DNA from: Escherichia phage 121Q
Sequence record: NC_025447.1
Reading direction: 5' to 3' (one strand)
DNA: 64,000 nucleotides
Below are positions 3,782 to 48,786 of the stretch, piece by piece (within the stretch, counting starts at the first letter, position 1; each line of letters starts with the position of its first letter). A program made the position numbers and the translations under genes. A model generated the notes under the pieces. The model searched no databases. It saw only the letters and a program-made list of their open reading frames with translations, and had not been told where the DNA came from.

Positions 3782-4068
3782 AAATTTTAGAAGTCTTGCT
3801 AGAAAAAGATGCATCTGGTACTCTTTATGTTGGTAATGAGTTCAGTCCAGATCCAATTGATATGTTACAGAGAATCCAAACACTGACTCAAAACATCTCG
3901 GTTAAAAAACCGTTTCAGAAAGAATTGGAAATCTTTTGTGATAAAGATATTGAACAGCATGATAATGTGATTTCAGATATTAAAAGTCTATTGACAAAAA
4001 ATGGTTATGTAGAGTATAATCCTCCTATCGTAATCGTTATTCCAGACTTCATGAAAGGAACAATTTAA
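3778..4068 (+). CDS. hypothetical protein
   Basis: ORF track; ATGA overlap with upstream gene. Confidence 0.4.
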   Translation: MKILEVLLEKDASGTLYVGNEFSPDPIDMLQRIQTLTQNISVKKPFQKELEIFCDKDIEQHDNVISDIKSLLTKNGYVEYNPPIVIVIPDFMKGTI

Positions 4069-4337
4069 TGACTAAAGAAGAAATGAAATCTCGCTTAAGC
4101 GAACTGAAGAAAGAACGTAAACTAGTACGTTTAGACTGGGATATCCTTAACAGGAAAGATGAGCAATCATATGCTAACTGGAGTTCTGATAAAGTACGAA
4201 ATGACCGTTCTAAAGAAGATGCAAAGCAATTCATGGCATTATCGAAGCGACTATCATCTTTGAACAGTGAAATTACTGGCCTTCAGAAAGAGATTATTTC
4301 CATTCTTAAAGCGGAGATTGAATCACTCTATGAATAA
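4068..4337 (+). CDS. hypothetical protein (Lys/Glu-rich, coiled-coil-like)
   Basis: ORF track. Confidence 0.4.
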   Translation: MTKEEMKSRLSELKKERKLVRLDWDILNRKDEQSYANWSSDKVRNDRSKEDAKQFMALSKRLSSLNSEITGLQKEIISILKAEIESLYE

Positions 4338-4626
4338 ACATGAAGTAATTCATTTTGATGATAAGATCTATATTCCAAATATTGATAGTACTGAAACATA
4401 TTACCTAATCAATAAGATTATGGCTGAAACAAATACGTGTTGTCGTCAACAGCCAGGAAAATATGAGTTCAGTCAGACTATTGGTTATTACCGATATGAT
4501 ATGTTAGAATCATTTACAATTGATAAGTCTAAAGTTATTGACATTCTTGTACAGAATGGATATAATGAACAACGTGTAAATAATACAGATTTACCAGTTT
4601 CAAAAATTGTTCTTTCTAATAATTAA
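4330..4626 (+). CDS. hypothetical protein
   Basis: ATG at 4330 (MNKHEV...) overlapping upstream stop; track ORF 4267-4626 trimmed to this start. Confidence 0.4.
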   Translation: MNKHEVIHFDDKIYIPNIDSTETYYLINKIMAETNTCCRQQPGKYEFSQTIGYYRYDMLESFTIDKSKVIDILVQNGYNEQRVNNTDLPVSKIVLSNN

Positions 4627-4629
4627 AAA

Positions 4630-4713
4630 TTGGACAAGAACAGATATTGTGATATAATGTTTGTTATCGGCAGATATTAAAATGCAAACCATTCCTCAAT
4701 GATGAGGGTTTTT
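4630..4713 (+). promoter_or_regulatory. sigma70-like promoter (TTGGACA / TGTGATATAAT) followed by leader stem-loop CCTCAatgaTGAGG + T-run
   Basis: -35/-10-like hexamers with extended TG; hairpin at 4694-4707 then GTTTTT; upstream of ORF 4742. Confidence 0.4.
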
Positions 4714-4741
4714 CATAAAAAAGAAATAAAAGGGTATTAAA

Positions 4742-4951
4742 ATGGCTAAAGAAACTAACGCACAAGTACTAGATATCACCGACTTCGACCGCACTGTGAA
4801 CTACATTCAATTCCAGATTCATCAAGCAGAAGAAGCTCTAGCAGTATTCCACGGTACTGGTGCAAGGCCAATCCGTTTTGCTCACTTGATTGCATGGAAG
4901 AAAAGTCTTCAAGAAGAACTATCTGAACTGCGTAAAGCAAATCGTAAGTAA
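4742..4951 (+). CDS. hypothetical protein
   Basis: ORF track; RBS-like AAAGGG upstream. Confidence 0.45.
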   Translation: MAKETNAQVLDITDFDRTVNYIQFQIHQAEEALAVFHGTGARPIRFAHLIAWKKSLQEELSELRKANRK

Positions 4952-5016
4952 TTTATCTTACCGCCTCATCATTTTTGATGGGGCATTTTAATCATATAAA
5001 GTAAGAGGATTTATAA

Positions 5017-5523
5017 ATGAGTGTTGAATATTGGTTTTTGTTTGTGTGTATTGGTACACTTGCATTAATCACCATTGGATTGATTTTCAATACCATGATT
5101 AGTGGAAGTAAGTACTTTAAGACATTCCAACTTTTAATGTCTGCTATGCCATATAGTGCTGATGCCGAAAAAACAATTTCTCTAATTTTAGATAAGTTCG
5201 ATGCAAATCTTTTGGTGGCTAAAATTTCAGCATGTGATACAAATATTTCATTTTACACTGTAGAGACAGAACAGAATGGGATTGATACACAATACTCAAA
5301 TCCAGTAGTTGCTGAAATTTTCATTGGTTCAAAATATTATGCCTATGGATATGTAAGAAAATATTATTCAGAAGCAAAAGCTGAGTTGACGAAGAAGCGA
5401 CCATCAATAAAAACTTTAAAACGCATCATTGCGTTGGAAAAATCACTTCGTGGTCAAACAAGCGTTAATGAGCCACCATCAGTGATTAAATCCAAAAAAA
5501 GTAATGTTGTGGAGTTGGAGTAA
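5017..5523 (+). CDS. hypothetical protein with N-terminal transmembrane helix
   Basis: ORF track; hydrophobic N-terminus FLFVCIGTLALITIGLIF. Confidence 0.45.
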   Translation: MSVEYWFLFVCIGTLALITIGLIFNTMISGSKYFKTFQLLMSAMPYSADAEKTISLILDKFDANLLVAKISACDTNISFYTVETEQNGIDTQYSNPVVAEIFIGSKYYAYGYVRKYYSEAKAELTKKRPSIKTLKRIIALEKSLRGQTSVNEPPSVIKSKKSNVVELE

Positions 5524-5813
5524 TGGAACCAGAAAAATCAAGAAAAATTCTTATTGATGTCCAAACTAAATTATTAGATATTATGGAAATCATCAATGAG
5601 TTACCACAGGGTTATCAGTACAAAGTTCGTGAAATGTTATCTTGTGCCGAAACCGTTGTTTCTATGTACGATGATATTCAACATGGTATTATCCCTGATA
5701 TTCTCAAAGATGACGTAAATATTAACACTGAGGTAAAAGAAACTAAATTAGAATCAGAAACAGTATCTAATAAAAAAGTTCTAGACCTTAGTGGTATAAA
5801 AATTAATATCTAA
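5523..5813 (+). CDS. hypothetical protein
   Basis: ORF track. Confidence 0.4.
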   Translation: MEPEKSRKILIDVQTKLLDIMEIINELPQGYQYKVREMLSCAETVVSMYDDIQHGIIPDILKDDVNINTEVKETKLESETVSNKKVLDLSGIKINI

Positions 5814-6001
5814 AAAACATCCAATAGGAGAAGTAATGAGTAATCAAAAAATCGACTTAGTAGTAAAACTTCAAGAGATTCAAGCACTAGCTAAAGACCT
5901 TGATAACACACGTGCATCAGTAGTTGATTCACTATGTGCAACAATCCTGACTGTTTTTACAGATTACGAAAAGAAATCTGATTAAACGTTACTTTGTAAA
6001 T

Positions 6002-9412: not shown

Positions 9413-9490
9413 CAAATGTTTTTGAAAAAAACCAGAAAATGAATGATTTTTTTGGACAACTCAAAAATATATGATATAATAATTAGTACA

Positions 9491-9580
<90 letters not shown>

Positions 9581-10015: not shown

Positions 10016-10595
<580 letters not shown>

Positions 10596-10656: not shown

Positions 10657-10694
<38 letters not shown>

Positions 10695-11056: not shown

Positions 11057-11809
<753 letters not shown>

Positions 11810-13895: not shown

Positions 13896-13968
13896 GCCGA
13901 CTTAGCTCAGTAGGTAGAGCGTTCCTCTTGTAAGGGAAATGTCACCAGTTCAATTCCGGTAGTCGGCA
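13896..13968 (+). tRNA. tRNA-Thr (anticodon TGT) candidate
   Basis: Acceptor GCCGACT/AGTCGGC, D-arm GCTC-AGTAGGTAG-AGCG, anticodon loop CTTGTAA, T-loop TTCAATT; one T-stem mismatch. Confidence 0.65.
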
Positions 13969-15272: not shown

Positions 15273-15427
15273 AATCGTTTAACCCGATAGCTTCTAGTCA
15301 GTACTGATTCCTCCTTATGTATAGAAGCTATCACTTTTTACGTATAATGATATTACCCTCAAATTCATTATATTCGTTACCCTCTAACAGTATCTTTTTA
15401 TTCCTCTTGGATGCTGTAATTTAGAAG

Positions 15428-15487
15428 TTGACATTTTAACTTCTTATATGTTATACTTAAGGCTGATTCAATGAATCGGCCTTTTTT
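15428..15487 (+). promoter_or_regulatory. promoter-like TTGACA element followed by terminator-like hairpin (GGCTGATTCA/TGAATCGGCC + T-run)
   Basis: Hexamer and hairpin read directly; immediately upstream of ORF 15497. Confidence 0.35.
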
Positions 15488-15496
15488 CTTATATAG

Positions 15497-15925
15497 GTGA
15501 ATGCAATGAGTTATTTGTTTACTTTAATTGATAAGTATGTTGACATTGTATACCGTCAAGTTTGTAGTGATACGTTTGAAACAAAAAACCCAATTAGAGA
15601 TGGAATTTTTGATGTTGCCGTTGGATCATTTTTGAATGGGTACACCGAGTCATTATACAACAGTAATAATATTTTTATTTCAGTTCAATCAAGGCATACA
15701 TCAGACTATGCTGTTAGCATTGATATTTGGGAAAATAATATAGAAATAGACATAACGGAACATACTAACATTTGTGTTGATGATACATTTAATCAATTAA
15801 CTGAAGAAATGTACTTGCAGTTGAATTTTGTACATGATCTTACAAATATCAGTTATGATACATTAAGGAAAATATGTTTTCTTAGTGGGGTGATTCGTAG
15901 TAATATGAGTAAGTATGGGAAGTGA
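15497..15925 (+). CDS. hypothetical protein, EExFFQxST-motif family
   Basis: ORF track; product contains EEMYLQLNFVHDL. Confidence 0.45.
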   Translation: MNAMSYLFTLIDKYVDIVYRQVCSDTFETKNPIRDGIFDVAVGSFLNGYTESLYNSNNIFISVQSRHTSDYAVSIDIWENNIEIDITEHTNICVDDTFNQLTEEMYLQLNFVHDLTNISYDTLRKICFLSGVIRSNMSKYGK

Positions 15926-23986: not shown

Positions 23987-24060
23987 AAGTATTTGACATA
24001 ACAAATAATATGGAGTACAATGTGCTCCTAATTTAATTATCAGCTAAAAAGGAAAACATT

Positions 24061-28687: not shown

Positions 28688-28966
28688 ATGTCTTTTTCTA
28701 AAGAAGAACGTGACCTTATTAAAAAAGCAATTTGGTTTTATGCTAATGAAGGGAAGTGCGATGAAGAAAAAGCACGTGAACTGTGTAATATCCTTGAGAA
28801 GAAACAAGAACTGAAAGTGTATCGTATCCGTGATTTGGATGAAGGGGATCGTATTGTCCTAGCTGAAACAAAAGAAGAAGCAGAACAAATCTTCACTGAT
28901 AAAAACGAAAATCCACATTGGATGGAAGAAGTCTGTGATGTTAAAAAAGGTACTTATATCGATTGA
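28688..28966 (+). CDS. hypothetical protein
   Basis: ATG at 28688; track ORF 28673-28966. Confidence 0.45.
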   Translation: MSFSKEERDLIKKAIWFYANEGKCDEEKARELCNILEKKQELKVYRIRDLDEGDRIVLAETKEEAEQIFTDKNENPHWMEEVCDVKKGTYID

Positions 28967-28991
28967 CAGTACTGAATAATAGCAGTATAAT
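28963..28991 (+). promoter_or_regulatory. sigma70-like early promoter (TTGACA - 17 nt - TATAAT)
   Basis: Contains CAGTACTG; upstream of ORF 29085. Confidence 0.5.
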
Positions 28992-29084
28992 GTTTATATC
29001 AAAGGGAATGCAGTGAAAGGAAAGACAGCATAATCGTACTCGTCACTGCGTTCCCGCCCTTTTAAATTAAATGAGGAATTAACT

Positions 29085-34509: not shown

Positions 34510-34701
34510 ATGTTGATTTATCAAGGTGATAATATTCGTGTTATGCAGCATCCCTACTTACAAATCTTTGATGTGCAGCAGTATATGGAAGGTGATGACC
34601 CAAGAACCTATGGTCGTAAGTATGATTACTTCACTGTAAAGCAGTGTAAAAATATTAACGAAGTACGACAATTAGTTCAAGAACTTCAAAACAAAGGTTG
34701 A
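34510..34701 (+). CDS. hypothetical protein
   Basis: ATG at 34510; track ORF 34456-34701. Confidence 0.35.
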   Translation: MLIYQGDNIRVMQHPYLQIFDVQQYMEGDDPRTYGRKYDYFTVKQCKNINEVRQLVQELQNKG

Positions 34702-34727
34702 CTTCGGTCAGCCTTTTTTGTTATAAT
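34695..34727 (+). promoter_or_regulatory. stem-loop terminator overlapping promoter (PeSL-like cassette)
   Basis: AAGGTTGAC-TTCG-GTCAGCCTT + T-run; TTGACT inside the stem and TATAAT 18 nt downstream. Confidence 0.55.
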
Positions 34728-38117: not shown

Positions 38118-38150
38118 AAGGTTGACTTCGGTCAGCCTTTTCTTTATACT
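38118..38150 (+). promoter_or_regulatory. stem-loop terminator overlapping promoter (PeSL-like cassette)
   Basis: AAGGTTGAC-TTCG-GTCAGCCTT + T-rich; TATACT downstream. Confidence 0.5.
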
Positions 38151-39686: not shown

Positions 39687-39693
39687 ACATTTA

Positions 39694-39730
39694 AAAGGTT
39701 GACTTCGGTCAACCTTTTTTTGTAAATATA
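39694..39730 (+). promoter_or_regulatory. stem-loop terminator overlapping promoter (PeSL-like cassette)
   Basis: AAAGGTTGAC-TTCG-GTCAACCTTT + TTTTTT. Confidence 0.55.
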
Positions 39731-40779: not shown

Positions 40780-40813
40780 AGGGTTGACTTCGGTCAGCCT
40801 TTTTTGTTATGAT
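40780..40813 (+). promoter_or_regulatory. stem-loop terminator overlapping promoter (PeSL-like cassette)
   Basis: GGGTTGAC-TTCG-GTCAGCC + TTTTTT; TATGAT downstream. Confidence 0.5.
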
Positions 40814-43509: not shown

Positions 43510-43537
43510 TTGACAAACACATTCAGTACTGTATAAT
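43510..43537 (+). promoter_or_regulatory. sigma70-like early promoter (TTGACA - 16 nt - TATAAT)
   Basis: Spacer contains CAGTACTG. Confidence 0.5.
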
Positions 43538-43584
43538 GCTTATCAAGGGGATGAACTTCTCATCCCTACAATCGAGGAACTACC

Positions 43585-45273: not shown

Positions 45274-45309
45274 AAGGGTTGACTTCGGTCAGCCCTTTTT
45301 GCTATAATT
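45274..45309 (+). promoter_or_regulatory. stem-loop terminator overlapping promoter (PeSL-like cassette, canonical copy)
   Basis: AAGGGTTGAC-TTCG-GTCAGCCCTT + TTTT; TTGACT in stem, TATAAT 18 nt downstream; near-identical to copies at 46561 and 48723. Confidence 0.6.
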
Positions 45310-46560: not shown

Positions 46561-46596
46561 TTGACTTCGGTCAGCCCTTTTTGCTATAATTATTTC
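46561..46596 (+). promoter_or_regulatory. stem-loop terminator overlapping promoter (PeSL-like cassette, canonical copy)
   Basis: AAGGGTTGACTTCGGTCAGCCCTTTTTGCTATAATTATTTCATCAA. Confidence 0.6.
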
Positions 46597-48722: not shown

Positions 48723-48757
48723 AAAGGGTTGACTTCGGTCAGCCCTTTTTGCTATAA
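48723..48757 (+). promoter_or_regulatory. stem-loop terminator overlapping promoter (PeSL-like cassette, canonical copy)
   Basis: AAAAAGGGTTGACTTCGGTCAGCCCTTTTTGCTATAATTATTTCATCAA. Confidence 0.6.
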
Positions 48758-48786
48758 TTATTTCATCAACTGATGAGGATAACGAA

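Follow-up and report, generated by a model that had tools for sequence, protein, structure and literature searches.

Does a terminator-like hairpin that lies between a strong promoter and its gene serve to stop transcription? The question is raised by two places in a stretch of 64,000 nucleotides (nt) of Escherichia phage 121Q (NC_025447.1), hereafter the window: the leader of a gene for a 69-amino-acid (aa) protein (locus 1, 4631-4741) and the region before a gene for a 139-aa protein (locus 2, 15428-15487). An earlier interpretation made from the letters of the window (the sequence-only reading) took both as good sigma70-like promoters followed within about 40 nt by a stem-loop and a T-run, and proposed a stabilising 5' hairpin, an attenuator, or an antitermination-dependent control point. 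Sequence inspection and a promoter scan confirmed an arrangement of promoter plus hairpin at both places, and each promoter matches the consensus at 11 of 12 positions with an additional TG. The sequence-only reading was thereby borne out in part; the treatment of the two as a single phenomenon was not supported, and the two hairpins differ greatly in strength. Comparison with related phages suggests, with a probability of roughly 0.55 for the explanation as a whole, that loci 1 and 2 are separate devices and not one class: at locus 1 a leader that would begin with a very small conserved pseudoknot, and at locus 2 a terminator in unusual overlap with the next promoter. To our knowledge, almost nothing is known about the control of early genes in Rak2-like jumbo phages, which are candidates for therapy and of whose genes about 80% are unannotated.

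Pseudoknot at the predicted 5' end of the locus 1 mRNA

The region 4000-6000 is 100% identical to Escherichia phage vB_EcoM_CRJP21 and at least 99% identical to about 20 other Asteriusvirus genomes (PBECO4, 121Q-like, G17, and phAPEC6); by these matches, the source of the window is an Asteriusvirus, a PBECO4/121Q/G17-like jumbo phage of Escherichia coli. All coordinates follow the window's own numbering, since the window is only partly collinear with CRJP21. For locus 1, we compared the homologous gene and its upstream DNA from 11 GenBank phages (Asteriusvirus lineages down to 68% DNA identity, Salmonella 7t3, Klebsiella fENko-Kae01, Erwinia Hallingskeid, and RaK2), 12 IMG/VR contigs, and 5 metagenome contigs. 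The promoter and leader consist of the following parts.

4631-4658, plus strand: sigma70-type promoter of the 69-aa gene (-35 TGGACA 4631-4636, TG 4650-4651, -10 TATAAT 4653-4658)
4665-4685, plus strand: predicted 5'-terminal H-type pseudoknot of 21 nt, from covariation in 23 distinct sequences
4665-4668 with 4673-4676, plus strand: stem 1 (S1) of the pseudoknot, TATC paired with GATA, 3-4 base pairs (bp)
4669, plus strand: loop 1, a single invariant G
4670-4672 with 4683-4685, plus strand: stem 2 (S2), GCA paired with TGC, 3 bp
4677-4682, plus strand: loop 3, TTAAAA, A-rich and 5-6 nt long across lineages
4693-4708, plus strand: leader hairpin B (TCCTCA / ATGA / TGAGGG, 6 pairs, 4-nt loop), the terminator-like hairpin of the sequence-only reading
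4709-4713, plus strand: run of five T after hairpin B, lineage-specific
4714-4741, plus strand: A/U-rich unstructured stretch with the Shine-Dalgarno (SD) sequence AAGGG at 4730-4734, from sequence inspection; the A-rich stretch and AAGG are conserved in relatives

The order of the leader was common to all homologues collected, namely promoter, 4-bp hairpin, UAAAA with a conserved trinucleotide, second hairpin, A/U-rich stretch, AAGG, and ATG, with a leader length of 81-102 nt. The first hairpin reads CATC-GACG-GATG (TATC-GGCA-GATA in the window), and the last three bases of its loop are always complementary to the trinucleotide found 5-6 nt beyond the stem. Loop and partner were GACG and CGU in the majority (14 sequences), GGCA and UGC in the window clade (7 sequences), GUCG and CGA in EJP2, and GACA and UGU in Hallingskeid. 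With S1 and S2 both formed, only an H-type pseudoknot is possible.

The structure .....((((.[[[))))......]]].... was tested on an alignment of 23 distinct sequences (A2), in which 99.4% of the cells were paired. S2 was 100% paired, by way of four compensatory pair switches; pair 11-26 was AU in 15 sequences, GC in 7, and UA in 1, and pair 13-24 was GC in 15 and AU in 8. None of 500 shuffles attained the observed pairing, and slid controls were 1-42% paired; the covariation thus speaks for both helices. An outside control was drawn from IMG/VR with the broader pattern CATCGNNNGATGTAAAA (same stem and linker, any loop), which gave only unrelated chance matches; loop and partner were complementary in 10 of these 120, several of them trivial TTT/AAA cases, which is about the chance rate. 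Nine jumbo-phage contigs had a single copy each of the exact motif CATCGACGGATGNAAANCGT, and in every case it lay some 80 nt ahead of the homologous gene; the remaining 21 matches belonged to one near-identical GC-rich contig family and look like chance. In Rfam, only tRNAs reached the gathering score, and the best matches at the locus 1 and locus 2 regions had E values of at least 0.067.

The promoter has a 16-nt spacer and an extended -10 element. Its -35, TG, and -10 are kept before the homologous gene in all relatives, with differing spacers. What the comparisons show directly is the sequence features with their conservation and covariation; start sites throughout this study are predictions from the spacing to the -10 element, and termination behaviour and protection from decay are inferred. 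Transcription from sigma70 promoters usually starts 7-8 nt past the -10, preferably at a pyrimidine-purine step. By this usual spacing the predicted start is A4666 (or T4665), so that the RNA would begin with the pseudoknot itself. S1 likewise begins 4-8 nt past the -10 in most lineages scored, that is, at the position expected for the (predicted) start. Taken together, these comparisons indicate that locus 1 is a previously undescribed and well-supported leader RNA element, of a known kind (structured, 5'-terminal, and gene-specific) and of a new form.

A regulon built on the motif was considered and rejected: ATCGRCRGAT occurs exactly once in the window, near-matches are at chance level, and each relative genome has one exact copy. 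Additionally, the IMG/VR contigs L090, L106, and L146 contain CATCGACCGATGTAAAAGGT, with the same stem and linker and the complementary pair ACC and GGU. The site is intergenic and precedes a 200-aa gene by about 95-98 nt, a context similar to that of locus 1, but the phage group is a different one with higher GC content, and the occurrence is within the chance rate.

Hairpin B and the T-run in the locus 1 leader

Hairpin B begins 35 nt past the -10 and about 7 nt past the pseudoknot. In the window it folds at -6.2 kcal/mol (z-score -0.56), and 50 of 200 shuffles fold as well. The hairpin of the window is thus not significant alone, and its reality therefore rests on comparison with relatives. 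MAFFT gave no in-register alignment of this segment, and each lineage was instead folded separately against shuffles. A hairpin was present 1-10 nt after the second S2 arm of the pseudoknot in 16 of 16 lineages folded, with unrelated stem sequences (CCUCA, CUCUCAA, CAUUCAA, GCGUUCAA, GUUCUCA, GGUACUUA, GGUAACUUC, and others). The z-scores were negative in every lineage, with a combined p of 2e-9 by Fisher's method.

The T-run behaves differently from the hairpin. At least four T follow hairpin B in five separate lineages (the window clade, L026/27, L028, L029, and L036), and a run of this length is absent from A4, JNE01, EJP2, 7t3, Hallingskeid, RaK2, L024, L025, L030-L034, and L037. The corresponding sequence is GGGTTCTAT in A4 and GGACTTTCAT in JNE01, two phages of the same genus that keep all else. 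Two features of intrinsic terminators are thus missing at 4693-4708: the stem does not exceed shuffles, and the U-tract is not kept in relatives. ARNold made no terminator call at hairpin B in the identical sequence of G17, where it did call the terminators at 4963 and near 6001. The weak stem, the missing call, and the loss of the T-run in most relatives make a conserved role as terminator, or as the attenuator that the sequence-only reading had offered, unlikely. From the comparison among lineages we conclude that hairpin B is a conserved leader structure with a lineage-specific terminator-like look.

The idea nevertheless has points in its favour. Hairpin B with its U5 might act as a premature terminator or attenuator whose read-through is set by the pseudoknot, in a put-like or riboswitch-like way, or by a phage antiterminator; this would correspond to the attenuator and antitermination options of the sequence-only reading. 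The hairpin and T5 sit 28 nt past the predicted start, the T-run recurs in five lineages as described above, and the genes from 5017 onward, for which the scan found no promoter of their own at 9/12 or better, would depend on read-through. Besides the weakness of the stem and the patchy U-run, several observations speak against it. Leader-peptide attenuation was rejected, since the 6-codon open reading frame (ORF) with ATG at 4682 and its stop in the hairpin loop is present only in the window clade, and most lineages have AAAACGU instead. In place of the -10-like TAAAAT at 4678-4683, most lineages have TAAAAC or TAAAGC, and no riboswitch or antiterminator of Rfam matched. We consider such an attenuator quite unlikely, and attenuation or antitermination is the least supported of the roles weighed for locus 1. 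The T-run would rather be a lineage-specific accident that causes, at most, minor termination of a leakage type.

A perfect complementarity of 10 nt between AATGATGAGG in hairpin B (4698-4707) and CCTCATCATT in the 5' arm of the gene terminator (4964-4973) was also tried as a candidate interaction; it is not conserved in A4, JNE01, and 7t3, and is probably coincidence.

The 69-aa gene and possible roles of its leader

Two further features complete locus 1.

4742-4951, plus strand: gene for the 69-aa protein (ATG at 4742), homologue of 121Q_106, phrog_15704
4963-4984, plus strand: strong intrinsic terminator after the 69-aa gene (-15.1 kcal/mol, z -5.79), annotated by ARNold in G17

The gene was found across Rak2-like jumbo phages, in at least five phage genera, and a GC-rich hairpin occupies the place of the 4963-4984 terminator in all relatives. 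The homologous proteins are 42-57% identical, and the pseudoknot sequence beside them is near-invariant. The product has no Pfam domain and its PHROG is of unknown function. AlphaFold models it as a two-helix hairpin (predicted local distance difference test score 79, from 12 database homologues), for which the best match in the PDB had E = 1.7, with no match to a nucleic-acid-binding fold. The homologue of fENko-Kae01 was detected by liquid chromatography-tandem mass spectrometry of concentrated lysate, and the gene is therefore expressed. The region around locus 1 is a series of small plus-strand ORFs with strong sigma70-like promoters, and the literature on Rak2-like phages predicts early genes in regions of this kind.

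We propose that the locus 1 mRNA begins at about A4666, directly with the compact pseudoknot, followed about 7 nt beyond it by the short hairpin and then by the A/U-rich stretch up to the ribosome-binding site. Stem-loops at the 5' terminus block the 5'-end-dependent decay by RppH and RNase E in E. coli, and the leader of T4 gene 32 is also a stabiliser. The base-paired 5' end at locus 1 might likewise shield the mRNA from RppH and RNase E and yield a long-lived, highly expressed monocistronic message. The stabilising 5' hairpin of the sequence-only reading comes closest to this proposal; the structure at the 5' end would, however, be the pseudoknot at 4665-4685 and not the weak hairpin that had been flagged. 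The near-invariant sequence points to possible additional recognition of the knot by a trans-acting factor. The most likely role of locus 1, judged from its conservation, is 5'-end protection or gene-specific post-transcriptional control, and not termination. Because conservation of the knot extends beyond its pairing to its sequence, a factor that recognises it, as in the autoregulation of gene 32, is a serious alternative that is not separable from decay protection on this evidence.

In its most specific form, this alternative would make locus 1 a protein-read operator of translation or stability like that of T4 gene 32: a phage factor, possibly the 69-aa product itself, would bind the knot and spread over or occlude the A/U-rich ribosome-binding region in a gene-specific feedback loop. 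The constancy of the knot's sequence, and not just of its pairing, beside proteins of 42-57% identity argues for it, as do the single copy per genome, always before the homologue of the 69-aa gene, and the A/U-rich tract that runs to the SD. Gene 32, with a 5' pseudoknot and then an A/U-rich operator, is the precedent. The plain two-helix product, without a Pfam domain or a likeness to nucleic-acid-binding folds, fits poorly, and hairpin B interrupts the tract between pseudoknot and SD. We regard an operator of this form as possible, if doubtful.

The likeness to the gene 32 leader is considerable: both are phage mRNAs whose leader opens with an H-type pseudoknot (a predicted position here), tens of nt before the start codon, with a loop 1 of one nt and A/U-rich sequence to the SD, and both are conserved in related phages and specific to one gene. 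In contrast, the knot of locus 1 is far smaller (4 + 3 bp, 21 nt), hairpin B lies between it and the SD so that the unstructured part is limited to the 22 nt that follow this hairpin, and the gene encodes a helical hairpin and not a single-stranded-DNA-binding protein. There is no sequence similarity.

Other known systems share some of its traits. As in the ompA-type 5' untranslated region (UTR) hairpin stabilisers of E. coli, the structure at locus 1 would start no more than about 2 nt from the predicted 5' end of a strongly transcribed mRNA, and the predicted locus 2 transcript described below would also start with a blunt 5-bp hairpin; unlike them, locus 1 has a pseudoknot, with sequence conservation well beyond what a generic stabiliser requires. 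The minimal pseudoknots of luteoviruses (beet western yellows virus type) and of preQ1-I riboswitches have a compact H-type geometry. Locus 1 shares with them a 3-bp second helix, a loop 1 within the range of 1-2 nt, and an A-rich loop placed for the minor groove of stem 1, and differs in its position at the mRNA 5' end, its role, and its 4-nt hairpin loop without a ligand pocket; Rfam gave no PreQ1 match. Lambda PR'-tR' (Q) and HK022 put likewise have a strong promoter closely followed by structured RNA and a terminator-like element, whereas locus 1 has neither the conserved U-tract nor the conserved sigma-dependent pause element that would match lambda PR'-tR'. No similarity to put was found, and no Q-like factor was identified, with no search aimed at a Q-like gene having been made.

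The locus 1 leader provides a testable handle, as a very small pseudoknot with clean compensatory changes that is tied to one conserved gene. If the knot is a true mRNA stabiliser, it would be a compact part for expression engineering.

A further candidate promoter is found at 4538-4566, a perfect 12/12 match (TTGACA-17-TATAAT) that falls within the coding sequence of the gene upstream and precedes the promoter at 4631 by 92 nt. Its hexamers are kept in relatives, yet they also encode the conserved residues I-D-I and G-Y-N-E.

Terminator overlapping the promoter at locus 2

Locus 2 was compared among 6 Asteriusvirus lineages and contains the following features.

15428-15457, plus strand: sigma70-type promoter (-35 TTGACA 15428-15433, TG 15449-15450, -10 TATACT 15452-15457; 18-nt spacer; 11/12 with TG)
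15459-15487, plus strand: intrinsic terminator (hairpin 15459-15483 with core G15461-C15481, 11 pairs, and T-run 15482-15487)
15506-15925, plus strand: downstream gene of 139 aa from ATG 15506, phrog_35192, with SD AGGTG at 15495-15499

The hairpin folds at -14.6 kcal/mol (z -5.37), none of 200 shuffles folds as well, and it is comparable to the terminator at 4963-4984. The annotations of G17 and UE-S1 list it as a terminator. The block TGTTATACTTAAGGCTGATTC-loop-GAATCGGCCTTTTTTC, which comprises the -10, the hairpin, and the T-run, is the best-conserved part of an intergenic region of 225-330 nt in the 6 lineages, with a variable loop. The stem shows a compensatory T/A swap in JNE01, and a run of 5-6 T is conserved in all 6. 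The core of the -35 and TGTTATACT are also kept in the 6 lineages, while the spacer and the upstream DNA diverge in A4, where the DNA upstream of the block is largely replaced. Locus 2 thus has the conserved stable stem and immediate U-tract of an intrinsic terminator.

The stem starts at 15459, one base after the end of the -10 hexamer at 15457, so the sequence-only distance of about 40 nt does not describe this locus: the hairpin overlaps the expected start. The predicted start is G15465, 8 nt past the -10 and preceded by T, inside the 5' arm of the hairpin. RNA folded from 15464-15466 retains 0-6 pairs (0 to -3.1 kcal/mol), with the residual stem 3-4 unpaired bases away from the U-tract, and the residual fold is no better than shuffles (z -0.26).

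These features suggest that RNA arriving from upstream would form the full 11-bp stem next to U6 and terminate at locus 2. RNA polymerase at the locus 2 promoter would initiate at about G15465, inside the 5' arm, and its transcript would lack the lower 6 pairs of the stem; four unpaired bases would separate the residual 5-bp stem from the U-tract, with read-through into the next gene. Transcripts from this promoter would escape because the truncated RNA is without the 5' arm, and one palindrome would insulate two transcription units. The simplest reading of the sequence is an ordinary terminator for the upstream unit, in unusual overlap with the next promoter. None of the stabiliser, attenuator, or antitermination options of the sequence-only reading suits locus 2 best, given a canonical terminator that is annotated in two relatives and an expected start inside its 5' arm.

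If the hairpin belonged to the leader of its own promoter instead, it could be a 5' stabiliser or a self-attenuator. RNA from G15465 starts with a 5-bp hairpin that leaves no unpaired 5' base and could protect the end, and if transcription started at G15462, a stem of 8 bp adjoining the U-tract would be retained. The full 11-bp stem, however, needs 15459-15463, which lie 2-6 nt past the -10, where sigma70 holoenzyme rarely starts, and the residual fold has a z of only -0.26. Only RNA with both arms, that is, RNA from upstream, would explain why stem and U-tract are strictly conserved over their full length. An own-leader hairpin is thus very unlikely, and the overlapping terminator is preferred.

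The overlapping terminator resembles promoter-coupled terminators, in which the termination site lies within 35 bp upstream of the start with a peak at about 10 bp, and the -35 lies in the stem-loop with the T-tract as spacer directly before the -10 (Fletcher et al., bioRxiv 10.64898/2026.08.19.745784). At locus 2, too, the DNA between two tandem genes serves both an intrinsic terminator and the promoter that follows. The register of locus 2 is reversed, however, with the -10 before the hairpin and the predicted start in the 5' arm, and the canonical geometry is absent. Its termination site would lie about 20-25 nt downstream of the predicted start, the two transcripts would overlap, and escape would need truncation of the stem. 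Locus 2 may therefore extend the idea of promoter-terminator coupling to a register in which the promoter escapes the terminator that it overlaps, and such an arrangement affects how transcription units are drawn in phage genome annotation.

Conserved hairpins upstream of the locus 2 terminator

The intergenic DNA before locus 2 adds further structure.

15286-15444, plus strand: conserved hairpins H1 (15286-15332), H2 (15387-15417), and H3 (15423-15444); H3 overlaps the -35, and all three would lie in the terminator-ended RNA

In A4, H3 is retained despite a changed sequence (GGTATTGA/TCAATGCC). With the terminator, four consecutive hairpins are conserved in the 6 lineages, some with changed sequence, and the whole region folds at -57.9 kcal/mol. 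It also carries C/U-rich motifs resembling anti-SD sequences, with UUCCUCCUU in the H1 loop, UUACCCUC twice, and UUCCUCUU in the H2 loop. The region 15273-15487 might accordingly give rise to a structured small RNA of its own or to a processed RNA from the 3' UTR, in either case with its end at the terminator and with the promoter overlap being secondary. No convincing internal promoter was found (the best candidate scored 9/12), Rfam gave no match above noise, and covariation is thin among six moderately diverged sequences. A small RNA of this kind appears unlikely; it would be compatible with, and not opposed to, the terminator.

A 25-aa ORF annotated in G17 within 15273-15427 looks spurious.

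Promoters, hairpins, and chance expectation in the window

The possibility of a general class in which a promoter is followed by a hairpin was examined across the window and rejected. A hairpin with a T-run downstream of the -10 was found at only two strong promoters, those of loci 1 and 2, and downstream structure was not in excess after strong promoters (mean z +0.11, n = 34, versus -0.24 for random controls). Since strong promoters show no general downstream structure, loci 1 and 2 need individual explanation.

Chance co-occurrence of consensus matches in AT-rich intergenic DNA, without function at either site, would account for the number of promoter-like matches in the window, which is no higher than in shuffles (104 versus 108.8 expected), and for a locus 1 hairpin that does not exceed shuffles. 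Against this, promoters, pseudoknot, and hairpins are conserved and covary across genera, so that the comparative data already contradict it, and the locus 2 hairpin has a z of -5.37. We give it almost no credence.

Several observations weigh against the two separate devices that we favour. The compensatory changes in the pseudoknot represent only about 3-4 independent events, and the knot is tiny (7 bp), with a stability left uncomputed because ViennaRNA cannot score pseudoknots. In the RaK2 lineage the loop measures 7 nt and S2 is not evident, and about 6 extra bases precede S1 in EJP2, as also in Hallingskeid if only the inner stem is counted. The sequence of S1 hardly varies, a constancy that a pure structural stabiliser would not need. 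Some termination at hairpin B is possible, given the recurrence of at least four T in five lineages, and RNA initiated at G15462 of locus 2 would retain 8 bp of the stem (-9.1 kcal/mol) beside the U-tract and could still terminate. A search of the literature on Rak2-like phages found no mapped 5' or 3' transcript ends.

A bolder interpretation would take the 21-nt 5'-terminal pseudoknot as a new class of phage cis-regulatory RNA that is read by a trans partner and, separately, the start within the hairpin arm at locus 2 as a general, undescribed form of insulation; the two together are decidedly unlikely. The partner could be RNA polymerase, with put-like resistance to hairpin B and the 4963-4984 terminator and hence expression of the promoterless genes from 5017. 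By analogy with gene 32, it could also be the 69-aa product in a feedback loop.

Other promoter, hairpin, and repeat features

The palindromic 8-mer CAGTACTG occurred at 38 sites in the window, against 0.93 expected from shuffles (maximum 4), for example at 10201, 10680, 11439, 15264, 15299, 28629, 28967, and 43524. Several copies fall within promoter spacers, immediately before the -10, another occupies the H1 loop at locus 2, and one covers the stop codon of the upstream gene. It also forms the terminator stems (GCCAGTAC...GTACTGGC) of a minus-strand array of paralogues at 52-64 kb. CAGTACTG may be bound by a phage factor or may belong to a class of promoters as one of its elements.

A repeated terminator-promoter cassette, AAAGGTTGACTTCGGTCAGCCTTTTTTGTTATAAT and also AAAGGTTGACTTCGGTCAGCC(T/C)TTTTTG(T/C)TATAAT, was found at 34693-34727, 40784-40813, 45279-45308, 46561-46590, and 48729-48758. 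The -35 TTGACT lies inside its stem-loop and the T-run forms the spacer to the -10, which is the canonical geometry of promoter-coupled terminators, as seen at 34693-34727. Related hairpins are present at 38118-38139 and 39693-39718 (minus strand). A third overlap register was found at 2131-2164 and 23993-24028, where strong promoters have the -10 inside the hairpin (GGAGTATATATAATACTCC and GGAGTACAATGTGCTCC), followed by a T/A-rich tail.

Two other 12/12 promoters, at 28963-29060 and 43510-43575, each have a strong leader hairpin downstream. One has a 13-pair stem about 13 nt past the -10, followed by GCCCTTTTAAATT, in a leader segment of -24.3 kcal/mol; the leader of the other folds at -16.2 kcal/mol. 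Additionally, strong promoters that share one type (TTGACTAAATAGTTCAGTACTGATATAAT), located at 9453-9480, 10187-10214, 10666-10694, and 11425-11453, precede the tRNA genes (9491-9577, 11464-11554, 11563-11634, 11728-11799, and 13896-13968).

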